Numbered from the stretch's first letter, positions 13,979 through 29,051 are shown. The stretch is DNA of 64,000 nucleotides from Candidatus Thorarchaeota archaeon (GCA_029855935.1 JAGSHN010000016.1:32001-96000), one strand, 5' to 3'. Numbers and translations: made by a program. Notes: a model not told the origin generated them from the letters alone.

Positions 13979-15163
13979 ATGGCTGAGTACCTGAGGAAGC
14001 CCTCACGACGGATAACAAATATGATTGCCAAGGAACTTAGGCTGATAGTCAAGGACCGCGTTGCCATCTTTCTCATCTTCTTGCTGCCCGCTGCCCTGAT
14101 TGGAATGCTGTGGTACGTGTCGAACCAACAAGAGATGACTCTCGGCCCCCACGGTGGCGGATCCTCATCCTCGGAGGAGACCGTCACGACCAACGTCACG
14201 GAGGTCCAGACTGGTGTGGTTCTGGGCATCATCGACCGTGACACGACCCGTACGTATGATGGCCCCGATCTGTCAGAGAATTTCACTCAATATCTCAATA
14301 TGACCGTCGACGAATTGATAGTGTACAATGACACGGACGAGGCTGTCCGAGATCTGTACAGGGGGCGTATCGACGGGTTTGTCGTCATACCGGACGGGTT
14401 TGAGGCTAACCTGACCGTCAATGAGCCCACTTACGTCGAAGTCCATGTCGATGCCACCGACCTCACGACCCAGAGCACAGTTCAGGGCATTGTCCAGTCC
14501 GCTGTCGTGTGGTTCAGAGCCTCCAAGTTCTGGATACGGTCGGAAGTCTTCCCCGATCTACGTATCGAGTTCGCTCCGGAGGGCGACTTTGTGGAGACTA
14601 TATTTGGCGGCTTCATAGTCATCATATCCAGCTACCTTGGCATTGCAATGACCTCTGCACAATCCATTGTCGGTGACGCCCCTCTCCGACGAATGCTTCT
14701 CACCCCGACCAACCGCCTTGAGGTGATACTCGCAAAGGTCACAGCCTATGTCCTCATCGGCTTCTTTCAGTCACTGCTTCTCATCACGTTGTGGGTTGTA
14801 GCCTTCAATCTCAATCTCAGTACGGGCTTTGGAACACTCGTCATCATCATGAGTCTGTGTGCGCTCACAGGGTCGACGACGGGAATCCTGATCTCGTCAA
14901 TCGCGTCCACGCGCCTTCAGGCCAATCAGATGTTTCTGTTTGTCATGTTTGGCACAATGATACTCTCGGGCTTCTTCATCGACGTTGGCATACTTGACGA
15001 ATTCCTACCATTGAATCAGGGCCTGAAACTACTCATCGACACGGCCTTCAAGGGACTGTCTCTCCTAGAGGTGAGCACGCGAATCATCCGTCTGTTAGTA
15101 TTCTCAGTACTTGCCACCTTGGCCGCTACGGTGATCTTCTCCAAGAAACCGACGCTGGGGTGA
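13979..15163 (+). CDS. ABC-2 type exporter permease with a large extracellular domain
   Basis: IAKELRLIVKDR, TM1, extracellular loop with IPDGF and N-x-S/T sequons, RMLLTP..RLEVILAK, five further TM helices. Confidence 0.92.
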   Translation: MAEYLRKPSRRITNMIAKELRLIVKDRVAIFLIFLLPAALIGMLWYVSNQQEMTLGPHGGGSSSSEETVTTNVTEVQTGVVLGIIDRDTTRTYDGPDLSENFTQYLNMTVDELIVYNDTDEAVRDLYRGRIDGFVVIPDGFEANLTVNEPTYVEVHVDATDLTTQSTVQGIVQSAVVWFRASKFWIRSEVFPDLRIEFAPEGDFVETIFGGFIVIISSYLGIAMTSAQSIVGDAPLRRMLLTPTNRLEVILAKVTAYVLIGFFQSLLLITLWVVAFNLNLSTGFGTLVIIMSLCALTGSTTGILISSIASTRLQANQMFLFVMFGTMILSGFFIDVGILDEFLPLNQGLKLLIDTAFKGLSLLEVSTRIIRLLVFSVLATLAATVIFSKKPTLG

Positions 15164-15181
15164 GCAACCAGAGGTGATCAT

Positions 15182-28300: not shown

Positions 28301-29051
28301 CGACGGTGTCACAGACTATGACGAGGTCATCACCCATGGCACCGCACCTGACAAGAGCGATACGGATGATGACAGACTGACCGACTACTTCGAGATCATG
28401 GTCTCACTGACTTCGCCGACGAACAACGACACTGATGGTGACGGGCTCAGTGATGGTGATGAATACCTCACGTATCATACAAATCCCAATTCCCCTGACA
28501 CGGACGGCGACGGTCTCAACGACCTCTATGAAGTACAGGTGGGACTCAATCCTCTGTCGGCGGACACTGATGGCGACTCTCTACCCGACAACATCGACTT
28601 TGACCCCCGCACCCACGTTGGTTACTATATCGCGGCGATCGCGAGCGGGTTCGTAGTTCTCGGTTCCGTCCTAGTCTATGCCCGGCGGAGGCGTGCTGTC
28701 GAGGAGTATGTCACGGAGGCCGAGCCGGCCAGTCCGGGACTGCTACCGGGTATGGAGGTCGCAGTGGAGTACAAGATCCGTGGTGGCAAGGTCGTCTTTG
28801 GGGTGGCAGTCCGCAACGGCTCGGAGATCACAATGCAGAACGTCCATATTGTGCTCGGCATTCCTGATCTCACCGACGCCATCAAGAGCCAGCTGGTCGG
28901 GACAATCGAACCGGGCAGTTTCTCTGTGGCTGAGATCGAGTTCGAACTCGAGCCTGGTGCAAAGGGCGAGCTTGTTGGAATGGTGGAGTATGATACGGAG
29001 GACGGCGAGCATCACGTGATCAACCTTCGTCCAGTGGAGATAATCGCGTAG
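22314..29051 (+). CDS. Giant single-pass surface protein: FG-GAP-like beta-propeller, long acidic Ca-binding repeat stalk, TM helix, cytoplasmic Ig-like domain
   Basis: ATG 22314 overlaps the upstream stop (ATGA). Signal peptide, GDVDGD/GDLDGD blades, about 1,700 aa of DTDGDGLSD..E repeats, TM helix followed by RRRR. Confidence 0.9.
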   Translation: MRPQYLFITVIAVCVILTIGAPQSRHPVAADMPLGVAPAVPSALAPYHVALVWSNNTGSQVVDVVIDNFDADVYLETAVVTQNGSLFLFDQDGSRLGSLSLGATPYEVIAVDADGVGTSEIGVATSAGALVVDGSLTVVTNITLPDAAHTIAAVALDGSTPDELVMGCDDGHLYAYGVNASQLWNYTSNAAVRLLVAGDVDGDSEDEMLIASSLRLLSLVDDTGAEVFNQTYPYSIKSLAIGDLVGTAQPELVTGDSGGRIRVLMANGTLITTLTEADSVTVLAVGELVTGAGSRVVAGLADGEMRVYNGSLSLLWNVTAVNSVRTITLADIGGQTNNQILMTEGDVAHIYNATGYSIYEQTLVGLSGAVAVGDLDGDGASEFALGLSSGAIQVYGRDSDRDRLADARETLIEGTAWNDRDTDDDGLWDGDEVLDYGTDPLSPDTDSDGLTDFQEVITYGTDPNDPDSDGDNLTDYQEVYLGTDPNRRDSDGDGLTDFEENNITRTDPLVTDSDDDGINDAQDDNDGDGLTNLQEVRITHTDPNDVDSDGDGTSDYYDDEDGDNLANWKEISVGSDPLDPDSDDDGLLDGEEVKTWKTSPLQQDTDGDQLTDFEEVRIVHSDPLSSDGDDDGLSDYDEYVTYGTLPLNPDTDNDSLLDGEEVNTYHTNATNPDTDGDGISDGDEVLVWRTDPNTNDTDLDGLSDFDEITVYHTNATLVDTDGDGLDDGAEILTWHTNATSVDTDGDGILDKDEVDRYPTFNATNAHTFNATVNDYDWDSDGDRLTNGQEIYLTRTDPLEADTNADGTTDDLEDSDLDGLTNYDELFITHTEPRTPDTDGDQVKDGDEVNVLGTSPLDTDTDDDSISDYDEDFDGDGLSNGVELYKTNTDPLDTYTHGVGQPRDDQYDGDGDGLPNWFEVERTGTDPLYNDTDDDGVLDGYEDLDNDNMTNLEELAAHTLPLDPDTDNDGLSDWEETQLSHTDPLDPDTNDNGISDAQDDEDGDGLTNLQEIRTYGTNATLWDTDGDGLRDGLEVDVGLNATNVDTDGDGLWDGYRDANHNGRYDKGEIGEDVDGDGVVDPGETDPLNSDTDNDGLEDGREVLIGTDPLDPDVDNDGLLDGEEVDTYGSSPLLNDTDGDGLDDYTEVRVTETDPTDPTTHAGVSDYDYDSDGDGLTNGAEIDQYGTSPGDMDTDDDGLSDYDEVVVYDSDPLANDTDGDGVDDFKEVQYGSDLNKRDTDGDGLDDYVEIELLGTNATLYSTYNNGTSDFDLDLDGDGLRNGVEIYGYGSNATNPDTDGDGLNDYVEVKLAGTSPTDRDTDDDGLSDYDEYTVYGTSPVRVDTDSDGLDDRYEISISLTSPLKWDTDGDQLSDYDELNTYGSDPNSADTDGDGINDKKEIDLGTNVNSNDTDGDGLSDWEEWKVYGTDPTEADEDNDGLNDKEEIEYGTDPQNPDSDFDSLTDGEEVNTYGTSPTDADTDDDKIADNDEIWNSHTSPTSADTDGDGIRDDLDDEDADGINNFLEIYLYETNCTLFDTDGDGLGDGYEIFTSKTDPRSADTDGDGLGDWEELFRYFSNPNSLDTDGDGLSDGDEALTYHTLLNNTDTDGDSLSDYDEIKVFETDALQWDTDGDGLSDGDELNKFNTDPLDADTDNDLLTDYQEIALGTDARDSDTDDDGLTDYQENNQTLTDPLRYSTQDNGISDADWDMDNDTLTNLQEISLTKTNPRLNDTDGDGIIDGADDEDRDLLTNYQECVLTKTDPRDKDTDDDGVSDYNDDEDGDGLSNGAEVWDYLSDPLKTDTDGDGLNDYDEVMTYLTQVRNPDTDNDLLPDGDEVHEYGTSPLLNDTDSDSLSDYEEVFLTDTDPTRNMTHSGILDSEWDSDYDGLSNYVELRVYNTTPLDPDTDNDDLLDGEEVQLGTDPLNSDTDNDSLLDGLEVRQYGTSPLLNDTDGDGLSDWREVTVFHTNATAVDTDGDWLSDYDEVYVYNTDPNDPDDDGDGVTDYDEVITHGTAPDKSDTDDDRLTDYFEIMVSLTSPTNNDTDGDGLSDGDEYLTYHTNPNSPDTDGDGLNDLYEVQVGLNPLSADTDGDSLPDNIDFDPRTHVGYYIAAIASGFVVLGSVLVYARRRRAVEEYVTEAEPASPGLLPGMEVAVEYKIRGGKVVFGVAVRNGSEITMQNVHIVLGIPDLTDAIKSQLVGTIEPGSFSVAEIEFELEPGAKGELVGMVEYDTEDGEHHVINLRPVEIIA
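23505..28607 (+). repeat. Coding tandem array of 22-23-aa DxDxDGL(S/T)DxxE...TDP repeats (bacterial TSP3-like calcium-binding type)
   Basis: Directly visible in the translation. The copies are divergent at DNA level (GACACxGAxGGxGAxGG cores). Confidence 0.95.

Follow-up and report, generated by a model that had tools for sequence, protein, structure and literature searches.

An Asgard archaeal gene set encoding an ABC-2 transporter together with a catalytically dead subtilase-GIFT membrane protein

Among described systems, the closest to the locus reported here are GldA/GldF/GldG of Bacteroidota and generic ABC transporters with a PF09822 auxiliary protein, in which a membrane-anchored accessory protein bearing a GIFT ectodomain is encoded alongside an ABC-2 permease and its DrrA-like ATPase. 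Where PMC8269157 cites Hunnicutt 2002, GldAFG is given as an ABC plus accessory complex. A prodomain, an S8 domain, a beta-sandwich, a GIFT domain, a TM helix and a short cytoplasmic tail follow one another in site-1 protease (S1P, MBTPS1/SKI-1; PMC11231238), an active protease without an ABC partner. OST48/Wbp1, which has no catalytic role within the membrane-bound eukaryotic oligosaccharyltransferase, combines GIFT and beta domains with a TM helix at the C terminus. A membrane-anchored or degenerate S8 domain serves as a structural or receptor subunit in MycP, the mycosin of type VII secretion, and in the pseudoprotease CspC. The Wzm/Wzt O-antigen exporter is an ABC-2 system whose NBD protein, Wzt, carries an extra beta-rich module that recognises the glycan cargo; its likeness to the present system is one of analogy. 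No Asgard ABC-2/dead-subtilase system was found described in the non-subscription literature searched, in keeping with the sequence-only reading of this DNA, which had not recognised the arrangement as a described system.

The locus lies in a 64,000-nucleotide stretch of DNA from a Candidatus Thorarchaeota archaeon (the window, meaning the whole stretch analysed), in which ORF calling gave an operon of five co-oriented genes on the + strand and a sixth, likewise co-oriented, 56 nt downstream:

13723..13978, no strand: intergenic region between the permease gene and a divergent 783-aa gene, presumed from sequence to hold the promoter, with an A/T-rich stretch near 13885-13905
13979..15163, + strand: ABC-2 permease, 394 aa (Pfam, hydropathy, orthologues)
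15182..16861, + strand: ATPase A, 559 aa (Pfam, structure model, PDB profile, 17 orthologues)
16869..21326, + strand: pseudo-subtilase-GIFT type I membrane protein, 1485 aa (Pfam, profiles, model, alignment)
21304..22317, + strand: ATPase B, ~332-337 aa, start GTG 21304 or 21319 (Pfam, NCBIfam, 17 orthologues)
22314..29051, + strand: giant type I membrane protein, 2245 aa from ATG 22314, alternative start 22278 (Pfam, hydropathy, profiles)
29108..30451, + strand: cytosolic TPR protein, 447 aa (Pfam TPR families, synteny)

The five co-oriented genes, the gaps of 18 nt (permease/ATPase A) and 7 nt (ATPase A/pseudo-subtilase) and the two overlaps after them had all been read correctly before. The pseudo-subtilase and ATPase B genes overlap by 23 nt if GTG 21304 is the start and by 8 nt with GTG 21319, and an ATGA at 22314 joins the stop of ATPase B to the ATG of the giant gene. 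Because of this ATGA overlap, and because orthologues align from the Met at 22314, this start is likelier than 22278. Missing from the earlier gene list was the TPR gene, which lies downstream of the operon in most of the Thorarchaeial loci retrieved for synteny comparison. In Jord- and Freyarchaeia, a distinct TPR gene of 275 aa is a direct neighbour of the pseudo-subtilase gene.

The permease fitted ABC-2 models only. It matched Pfam ABC2_membrane_3 (PF12698) at 1.7e-28, with 100 bits against a cut-off of 31.6, and showed no match to FtsX/MacB-type permease models in Pfam or NCBIfam and none to the GldF equivalog of NCBIfam. Hydropathy indicated a first TM, a loop of ~155 aa predicted to be extracellular and five further TMs, and orthologues inside the operon of other genomes were 44-77% identical. 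Both ATPases contained Pfam ABC_tran (1e-27 in ATPase A, 3.8e-27 in ATPase B), and Walker A, Q-loop, LSGG, Walker B-Glu and H-loop were invariant or nearly so in 17 orthologues of each; the pairing of one permease with two different intact ATPases, observed in the sequence-only reading, is a conserved design. ATPase A consists of an N-terminal tandem beta/alpha module (~residues 16-235, nt 15227-15886), a DrrA-type NBD and a C-terminal domain, and its model (pLDDT 85.8) shows the module as two similar units. ATPase B is a canonical DrrA-type NBD with a C-terminal domain (NCBIfam drrA 1.7e-52, below cut-off). With the GldA equivalog model TIGR03522, 137 bits were obtained for ATPase B and 100 bits for ATPase A, both below the cut-off of 402.6, and by these profile scores both are classed as general DrrA-type NBDs rather than GldA equivalogs. 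The name of sensor formerly given to the N-terminal module of ATPase A is unsupported as it stands: Pfam Regulator_TrmB was matched at 5e-6, the only PDB profile matches were TrmB 3qph/2f5t (E 0.03-0.04), and the likeness is marginal and covers one beta-subdomain of TrmB. An Atlas feature search with this domain returned nothing (best 0.77). Compared with the Wzm/Wzt exporter, the Asgard module is N-terminal and TrmB-like, whereas the carbohydrate-binding domain of Wzt is C-terminal, and the large extracellular loop of the Asgard permease is missing from Wzm.

The pseudo-subtilase was divided into the following parts, all on the + strand:

residues 18-36: signal/anchor
residues ~55-140: I9-like prodomain
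residues 176-465, nt 17394-18263: dead S8 domain
residues 502-762, nt 18372-19154: beta-supersandwich (GH15-N-like)
residues 766-853 and 918-1005: Ig-like domains
residues 1007-1087: Gly/Ser linker
residues 1089-1267, nt 20133-20669: GIFT domain
residues 1268-1369: Ig-like domain
residues 1389-1407: TM helix
residues 1408-1485, nt 21090-21323: helical hairpin tail

Pfam gave Peptidase_S8 at 3e-44 and weak GIFT/DUF4350 matches. The GIFT domain of the window's protein stayed under the Pfam cut-offs (20.7 bits); across orthologues, IFT52_GIFT was matched in 18/19 and ABC_transp_aux in 13/19. A match to IFT52 was also obtained with a PDB profile (5e-11) and by fold, using the predicted structure (VIA Z 21.7, rmsd 2.1 A over 188 residues). 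The supersandwich resembled the N-domains of GH15, GH94 and GH65 enzymes (Z 18-19.6, ~230 residues, rmsd 3.2-3.7 A), in an ectodomain model of middling confidence (mean pLDDT 64.6), and the helical tail was conserved between Thor and Loki types. As in GldAFG-type systems, an accessory protein with a GIFT (PF09822/PF23355) ectodomain is encoded with the ABC genes, and the comparison with GldAFG made earlier proved apt, since the subtilase carries a GIFT domain of the GldG/IFT52 type. The Asgard system differs from GldAFG in its pair of dissimilar ATPases, of which one bears an N-terminal TrmB-like module, and in a type I accessory protein in which a dead subtilase, a supersandwich and Ig domains precede GIFT and a conserved helical tail enters the cytoplasm; none of its proteins scores as a GldA, GldF or GldG equivalog in NCBIfam.

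At the positions of the catalytic tetrad, the window's protein has D185, H228, D322 (for Asn) and A426 (for Ser), Ala426 (nt 18144-18146) having been placed by VAG-motif spacing and by alignment with active S8-GIFT proteins. The full D-H-N-S tetrad was absent from all family members checked (19 plus 36). The oxyanion Asn was replaced by Asp in 19/19, the nucleophile position was mostly A/T/V/G/L/F/R, and the His was gone in most Loki/Hod-type members; Asp and His were retained in most Thorarchaeial orthologues and Ser in 2/19. Unlike this family, other prokaryotic S8-GIFT proteins kept D-H-N-S in 6/6. Judged by these residues the family is catalytically dead, as the sequence-only reading had held for this subtilase. 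The Thorarchaeial orthologues L033 and L035 and the Helarchaeota-type P0129 have Asp, His and Ser together, so residual activity is possible in some members. A regulated proteolysis of the S1P type, in which an active S8 domain would cut a substrate in the membrane or at the surface and its products would be removed or delivered by the ABC transporter, would agree with the S1P-like order of prodomain, S8, beta domain, GIFT and TM and with the Asp, His and occasional Ser still present; set against the lost nucleophile, the Asn-to-Asp exchange in every one of the 19 and the missing His of most Loki/Hod-type members, it is extremely improbable.

The beta-sandwich and GIFT part of the pseudo-subtilase matched S1P in structure (Z 16.2), but the Asgard protein lacks the tetrad and is ~400 residues longer. 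The S1P-specific GIFT model MBTPS1_4th (PF23090) was matched by 1/19 members (E 0.004), and the PDB profile of the GIFT domain reached only E ~1 with S1P (8uw8); other prokaryotic S8-GIFT proteins are closer to MBTPS1_4th, whereas the Asgard GIFT domain scores with IFT52/GldG. The best PDB profile matches of the S8 domain were archaeal and bacterial subtilisins. A specific reading of the family as ancestor of S1P was rejected, as its S8 domain is nearest to these subtilisins rather than to S1P and its GIFT domain is of the IFT52/GldG type. In NCBIfam the S8 head was nearest to mycosin (1e-34) and CspC (5e-10), both below cut-off; mycosins, however, are parts of ESX systems and have an intact triad, CspC is a soluble protein of spores, and both lack a GIFT domain as well as an ABC partner. 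OST48/Wbp1 were the top Foldseek matches (E 2e-10; VIA Z ~18 for model residues 499-890), with an rmsd of 12-13 A, indicating that the domain arrangement differs, and Pfam OST48_N was not matched in the pseudo-subtilase family. Asgard WBP1 homologues have been reported only in Heimdallarchaeia (PMC10307638), and the pseudo-subtilase therefore appears to be a different family.

All five genes were adjacent in the retrieved Thorarchaeial loci wherever the contig extended far enough, and also in a second family of the Thorarchaeial order. This synteny runs into flanking genes and so reflects partly relatedness, not selection. The core, i.e. the ABC genes and the pseudo-subtilase, was found in shuffled order in Thor-, Jord-, Frey-, Hel-, Loki- and Hodarchaeales-type genomes, and members of the pseudo-subtilase family with a source name were all Asgard. 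Its order is perm-atpA-subt-atpB in family f12, atpB-perm-atpA with a divergent subt in Freyarchaeum, subt-atpA-perm-perm with a divergent atpB in one Lokiarchaeota genome, and atpB-perm-perm-atpA-subt in Harpocratesius. In Jordarchaeales, atpA-perm-atpB lie together and subt elsewhere, unlinked, an observation that was counted against a common complex.

Presence of the atpA N-domain and of the pseudo-subtilase was compared by family in a sample of 300 Asgard genomes. The two were found in 73/76 and 72/76 genomes of f1, respectively, and each in 5/5 of f7, 17/19 of f12, 6/6 of f19 and 6/7 of f24; in f9 both occurred in 3/68, in the same genomes (G062, G140, G155), and neither was found in f5 (28 genomes), f22 (21), f14 or f27 of this sample. 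Protein searches with the C-part and with the ATPase A N-domain gave, among the matches listed, almost all Thorarchaeota and are uninformative on wider distribution. A generic efflux ABC-2 transporter merely lying beside surface-protein genes would suit the nearest NCBIfam models, DrrA-type drug-efflux NBDs and RbbA/YhhJ-type permeases (all below their curated cut-offs), as well as the unlinked Jordarchaeales gene. The adjacency has, however, outlasted several independent rearrangements of gene order, and the ABC part and the pseudo-subtilase are equally patchy, down to the three shared genomes of f9, which makes such a chance neighbourhood very improbable.

The giant gene contains the following parts, on the + strand:

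~nt 22410-23567: beta-propeller
~nt 23595-28577: TSP3-type repeats, ~1660 aa, putatively Ca-binding
nt 28626-28682: TM
nt 28686-29048: conserved cytoplasmic beta domain, ~120 aa

Pfam gave TSP3_bac (PF18884) at 2e-134 and 437 bits, and a BBS2_Mid-type propeller at 1e-10, above cut-off; no FG-GAP model, as expected for integrin-alpha-like propellers, and no VCBS model was matched. The repeats, with 97 DxDxD motifs, a period of 23 aa, 22% Asp and 36 N-x-S/T sequons, fit bacterial TSP3 calcium-binding repeat proteins, and calcium binding is predicted. PDB profile matches of the N-terminal domain to designed 'Cake' propellers (9e-19), ITFG2 (0.012) and BBS1 (0.057) also identify it, at the level of sequence profiles, as a beta-propeller. 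The cytoplasmic domain gave adaptin/COP-appendage clusters in an Atlas feature search (0.82-0.86, lead level), with no significant match in Pfam on 16 orthologues or in a PDB profile search. This domain also occurs in a Loki-type UFL1/DDRGK/PCI-like cytosolic protein.

A search with the tail profile found the giant ORF of ~2250 aa in f1 and f2 only, the two Thorarchaeial families. No giant gene was seen in retrieved core loci of at least six other Asgard families, where the tail profile likewise gave no ORF of ~2250 aa; permease(s), both ATPases and pseudo-subtilase occur without the giant TSP3 protein in Jord-, Frey-, Loki-, Harpocratesius- and f12-type genomes, indicating that it is an addition specific to Thorarchaeia. 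By gene content, conservation as a unit extends to the ABC genes and the pseudo-subtilase but not to the adhesin. The sequence-only reading had built its machine around a long adhesin which the ABC transporter would assemble, release or cycle, with the pseudo-subtilase as its chaperone. This would account for the position of the Thorarchaeial giant gene within the operon, with its ATGA overlap and with synteny in retrieved loci reaching that far, and for a cytoplasmic domain more conserved (72% mean column identity) than whole orthologues (45-72% identity to the window's protein). In agreement with what that reading had noted, each of the two large proteins carries a hydrophobic segment near its N terminus and a single TM near its C terminus; the giant protein thereby brings its own signal sequence and anchor, and a core found without it must predate it and work without it. 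Across the Asgard genomes compared, the core recurred, rearranged and co-distributed, while the giant protein did not accompany it beyond f1/f2; an adhesin-centred machine is unsupported and improbable.

With a probability of roughly 0.6, we infer that the operon encodes a single membrane complex in which an ABC-2 machine resembling GldAFG is joined by a partner whose ectodomain is non-catalytic. The transporter (type V fold family) would use one permease gene in Thorarchaeia, presumably as a homodimer, and two in Loki-type genomes, with the two catalytically competent ATPases forming a heterodimer of which one subunit bears the N-terminal tandem module resembling a TrmB C-subdomain. The single-pass accessory protein would present the dead subtilase, which probably retains its prodomain, and after it the GH15-N-like supersandwich, the Ig domains and a GIFT domain of the GldG/IFT52/OST48 type, and would extend its conserved helical tail into the cytoplasm. 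The dead protease would act as a binding or scaffold subunit and not as an enzyme, comparable to GldG for GldAF, OST48 in OST and mycosin in ESX. A complex prediction with the two ATPases and the tail of the pseudo-subtilase gave a score of 0.08 (mark 0.32), which is evidence neither way. A look-up of datasets containing this DNA listed a hydrothermal-vent metagenome, perhaps the one from which it came, and none of RNA.

ATP hydrolysis would most likely drive export of an amphipathic envelope component, passed on to the pseudo-subtilase ectodomain. If such a complex exists, a lipid-linked glycan or polysaccharide is the tentatively favoured cargo, at somewhat less than even odds, because the folds of the ectodomain are carbohydrate-associated and because the module added to one NBD is similar to a portion of a sugar-sensor domain, much as Wzt has a glycan-recognising domain on its NBD. 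Sandwiches of the GH15-N type and GIFT domains need not bind sugar. Alternatively, no substrate might be transported, and ATP hydrolysis by the heterodimeric NBDs would be transmitted mechanically to the ectodomain, and in Thorarchaeia to the giant stalk, so that an external partner would be bound or let go, in the manner of FtsEX-EnvC/PcsB or MacB/LolCDE. The large non-catalytic ectodomain recalls the degenerate LytM factor EnvC, the ~155-aa permease loop could couple to it, and both single-pass proteins have strongly conserved cytoplasmic tails near the NBDs; against this, Pfam assigns the permease to the ABC-2 family and not to the FtsX/MacB type, and characterised ABC-2 systems are known as exporters or extractors. 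Such mechanotransmission is unlikely, if by no means negligible. In Thorarchaeia, the membrane complex would have gained two operon genes, one for a giant sequon-rich, Ca-rigidified stalk with propeller and cytoplasmic beta domain and one for the TPR protein, which together may provide a lineage-specific surface output in adhesion or envelope.

Nearly all Thorarchaeial genomes searched retain this energy-consuming surface system of ~15 kb, and so do several further Asgard classes. Its accessory subunit follows the domain order of S1P and resembles OST48 in its C-terminal part, both of them eukaryotic ER/Golgi proteins, yet is catalytically dead and ABC-coupled. If the cargo is a glycan or lipid, the system could bear on how Asgard surfaces and protrusions are built or remodelled. 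It is a long shot that three things hold jointly: that the core is a platform for glycoconjugate export and presentation, that its accessory subunit comes from an ancient GIFT lineage behind S1P and OST48, and that the giant tail links to cytosolic ESP-like machinery. The shared lineage would place an ABC-coupled envelope machine of archaea at the origin of the ER/Golgi GIFT proteins, and the cytoplasmic beta domain would tie the surface machine to the ESP-like machinery of the Asgard cytosol. Current annotation of these genes reads only 'S8 family serine peptidase' and 'ABC transporter', and annotators should be aware that the 'peptidases' of this pseudo-subtilase family are, by their residues, not peptidases.

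The ORF listing, Pfam and hydropathy confirmed the sequence-only reading of five co-oriented, tightly spaced genes with one permease, two ATPases and two large anchored proteins. A sixth co-oriented gene, for a TPR protein, begins 56 nt after the giant gene.

Co-oriented genes in the window (the first five from the ORF listing)
13979-15163, +, ABC-2 permease, 394 aa (Pfam ABC2_membrane_3)
15182-16861, +, ATPase A, 559 aa (Pfam ABC_tran)
16869-21326, +, pseudo-subtilase, 1485 aa (Pfam Peptidase_S8; weak GIFT/DUF4350 matches)
21304-22317, +, ATPase B, 337 aa (Pfam ABC_tran)
22278-29051, +, ORF of the giant protein (Pfam TSP3_bac, 2e-134; BBS2_Mid-type propeller)
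29108-30451, +, TPR protein, 447 aa

In the ORF listing, the gaps on either side of the ATPase A gene are 18 nt (permease) and 7 nt (pseudo-subtilase). The DNA offers two possible starts for ATPase B, GTG 21304 or GTG 21319, which overlap the end of the pseudo-subtilase gene by 23 or 8 nt. For the giant gene, ATG 22314, which makes ATGA with the ATPase B stop, is the likeliest start, since its orthologues align from that methionine. Hydropathy gave the permease one TM helix, a loop of ~155 aa and then five TM helices; the pseudo-subtilase and the giant protein each have an N-terminal hydrophobic segment and one C-terminal TM helix. The surrounding assembly is 2.97 Mb and 97% complete, and the stretch was found in one sequencing run only, from a hydrothermal-vent metagenome; no RNA dataset turned up for it. 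Two neighbouring ORFs gave no Pfam match: one of 320 aa lies 5′ of the operon (10418-11380, +), and one of 783 aa (11371-13722, −) is divergent from it and syntenic in most fetched Thorarchaeial loci. Convergent with the TPR gene is an ORF of 1125 aa (30444-33821, −), syntenic in several Thorarchaeial genomes; at its N terminus Pfam recognised a GNAT acetyltransferase domain (4e-20), and ~950 residues drew no match.

Twenty neighbourhoods were fetched for the synteny comparison. The postulated operon held: in Thorarchaeial loci all five genes were adjacent and in the same order wherever the contig extended that far, with the TPR gene next in most, and L043, from the second family of the order, showed the same arrangement. 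The non-protease part of the pseudo-subtilase was present in 24/24 genomes of the window's family, in that second family and in some other Asgard families. Synteny within the window's family partly reflects relatedness, since flanking genes are syntenic too; gene orders in distant Asgard genomes, where the core is retained, are stronger evidence for one unit.

Gene order of the core in other Asgard genomes
Family f12: permease-ATPase A-pseudo-subtilase-ATPase B
Candidatus Freyarchaeum deiterrae: ATPase B-permease-ATPase A, divergent from pseudo-subtilase
One Lokiarchaeota genome: pseudo-subtilase-ATPase A-permease-permease, divergent from ATPase B
Candidatus Harpocratesius repetitus: ATPase B-permease-permease-ATPase A-pseudo-subtilase
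Jordarchaeales: ATPase A-permease-ATPase B in one locus, pseudo-subtilase in a separate locus

These differing orders show that the pseudo-subtilase, both ATPases and one or two permeases have stayed together although their order was independently reshuffled several times. Directly 3′ of ATPase B in the four-gene core of f12 lies a gene for a Ras-family small GTPase (L044:8309-8833:-; Pfam Ras 6e-48), and locus L080 has a similar ORF of ~179 aa in the matching position.

Co-occurrence was determined in one set of 300 Asgard genomes, with the N-domain of ATPase A and the C-terminal part of the pseudo-subtilase as markers.

Genomes with each marker, by Asgard family
f1: N-domain 73, C-terminal part 72, of 76 searched
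f7: 5 and 5, of 5
f12: 17 and 17, of 19
f19: 6 and 6, of 6
f24: 6 and 6, of 7
f9: 3 and 3, of 68

The two distributions were almost equal; the three f9 genomes (G062, G140 and G155) were identical for both markers, and neither marker was found in f5 (28 genomes), f22 (21), f14 or f27 of this sample. Such common patchiness argues for functional linkage, with related genomes not counting as independent. An exhaustive search of 1.84 billion representative proteins with the pseudo-subtilase profile gave ~50 clusters matching most or all of it, and the named ones among those sampled were all Asgard (Helarchaeota, Hodarchaeales, Lokiarchaeia, Promethearchaeota). No description of the ABC-2/pseudo-subtilase system was found in the literature searched.

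A machine centred on a long adhesin, as initially proposed, was not borne out. When the giant protein was traced by its cytoplasmic domain, the ORF of ~2250 aa was limited to families f1 and f2, and the core is wider; the protein is therefore a Thorarchaeial addition and not the centre of the machine. Counted from Met13 of the ORF it has 2245 residues, comprising a signal/anchor, a beta-propeller, TSP3 repeats, a TM helix and a beta domain of ~120 residues. PDB profile matches of the propeller were to designed 'Cake' propellers (9e-19), ITFG2 (0.012) and BBS1 (0.057). The TSP3 stretch of ~1660 residues consists of Asp-rich 23-residue repeats (97 DxDxD motifs, 22% Asp, 36 sequons). The terminal beta domain (window 28686-29048) showed 72% mean column identity in 16 orthologues. 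Its profile also matched (E 1e-9 to 1e-12) inside a cytosolic protein of ~790-805 aa (L090:3929-6295:-, L091:3911-6181:-), which supports a cytoplasmic location of the domain. In this cytosolic protein PCI, E3_UFM1_ligase-like (UFL1-like) and DDRGK winged-helix domains were recognised, with weak VPS28/EAP30 matches; it was encoded by 64/68 f9 genomes (Lokiarchaeota-labelled) and by 7/7 f24 genomes.

The profile of 19 pseudo-subtilase orthologues matched the pro-subtilisins 3afg and 3whi in the PDB from position ~55, and an I9-type prodomain is therefore present. The distance from the VAG motif and an alignment that included active relatives were used to place the catalytic positions. In the window's protein these read D185, H228, D322 at the oxyanion Asn position and A426 (nt 18144-18146) at the Ser position.

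Residues at the catalytic positions in 19 orthologues and 36 wider Asgard members
Asp: kept in 16/19; 33/36
His: kept in 17/19; 13/36
Oxyanion Asn: Asp in 19/19; Asp in 31, Asn in 5
Ser: Ala 13, Thr 3, Ser 2, Val 1; Ser in 4/36

As the full D-H-N-S set occurred in none of the 19 and none of the 36, the suggestion of a non-catalytic subtilase was upheld, and by its residues the Asgard family is one of pseudo-proteases. Asp, His and Ser are all present in a few members (L033, L035, P0129), which may retain residual activity.

The remainder was modelled (residues 502-1485) at middling confidence (mean pLDDT 64.6). The model begins with a beta-supersandwich of ~260 residues that resembles GH15, GH94 and GH65 N-domains (Z 18-19.6 over ~230 residues, rmsd 3.2-3.7 Å), followed by two Ig-like domains, a disordered Gly/Ser linker, a GIFT domain, another Ig-like domain, a TM helix and a helical hairpin tail. 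The modelled GIFT domain resembled the IFT52 N-domain (Z 21.7, rmsd 2.1 Å over 188 residues), and the profile also matched IFT52 in the PDB (5e-11). In Pfam, 18/19 members matched IFT52_GIFT and 13/19 matched ABC_transp_aux, the family of GldG. The best Foldseek matches (2e-10) were to the oligosaccharyltransferase subunit OST48/Wbp1, aligned across GIFT, Ig and TM with an rmsd of 12-13 Å. Reported Asgard WBP1 homologues are limited to Heimdallarchaeia (PMC10307638), and the pseudo-subtilase is thus a different family.

Human site-1 protease (S1P) is laid out as prodomain, S8, P-like, GIFT (617-998) and TM (PMC11231238), so its domain order is common to the pseudo-subtilase, and its P-like and GIFT parts aligned with the model (Z 16.2). 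Specific kinship was unsupported: 1/19 members matched MBTPS1_4th, and ordinary subtilisins were the nearest matches of the S8 head. The exhaustive profile search also yielded six other prokaryotic S8-GIFT proteins of 1244-1336 aa (P0201, P0202, P0203, P0206, P0222 and P0255), all with D-H-N-S intact (6/6) and P0201 also matching the S1P-specific MBTPS1_4th above cut-off. These look like closer prokaryotic counterparts of S1P than the Asgard family.

The proposal of two intact ATPases was likewise sustained. Walker A, Q-loop, LSGG, the Walker B Asp-Glu and the H-loop His were invariant or near-invariant in both across 17 lineage-spanning orthologues, so activity is expected at both nucleotide sites. 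Given the two permease genes in Loki-type loci, it is economical to read the NBDs as a heterodimeric pair. ATPase A carries ~235 extra residues, modelled as two similar beta/alpha units (pLDDT 85.8). The label of a 'sensor' for this part was weakly supported: one unit matched the C-terminal beta subdomain of the TrmB effector domain in Pfam (5e-6, above cut-off), but TrmB, the sole PDB match of the N-domain profile, reached only E 0.03. Lone ORFs of ~147-170 aa matching one repeat unit (E 1e-7 to 1e-9) occurred in several Thorarchaeial genomes and in 3/3 f21 genomes (matches at G133:C66:2033-2293, G162:C64:41960-42214, G016:C21:9792-10070 and G074:C53:10885-11175).

Among described arrangements GldA/GldF/GldG comes nearest: it joins an ABC-2 transporter to a GIFT accessory protein, and its cargo is unknown (PMC8269157). 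The likeness drawn earlier stands for this shared composition, but no protein of the operon reached a Gld equivalog score (NCBIfam), so the operon resembles GldAFG without being a member. In the core, an ABC-2 complex would be partnered by a non-catalytic ectodomain. We favour the export of a glycoconjugate, which would then be handed to the pseudo-subtilase ectodomain, because the GH15-N-type sandwich, the OST48-like GIFT domain and the TrmB-like NBD module are all carbohydrate-associated, as folds only. The last of these may be analogous to the glycan-recognition domain of the Wzt NBD. The main rival to glycoconjugate export is mechanotransmission, in which the complex would move no cargo.

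Conservation of the cytoplasmic tail of the pseudo-subtilase could still be recognised between Thor- and Loki-type members, and a TPR gene recurred beside the pseudo-subtilase gene in Jord- and Freyarchaeial loci; that the TPR protein contacts the tail is a reasonable guess. The 275-aa TPR proteins of Jordarchaeales and Freyarchaeum (L045:8342-9169:-, L046:9149-9976:+, L074:14399-15349:-, L083:15064-15888:-) are mutual orthologues with 42% identity over the full length; the 447-aa Thorarchaeial protein showed generic similarity only. In Freyarchaeum the TPR gene is near the pseudo-subtilase gene. In Jordarchaeales the two are convergent and a few nt apart, an adjacency that holds though the ABC genes sit elsewhere.
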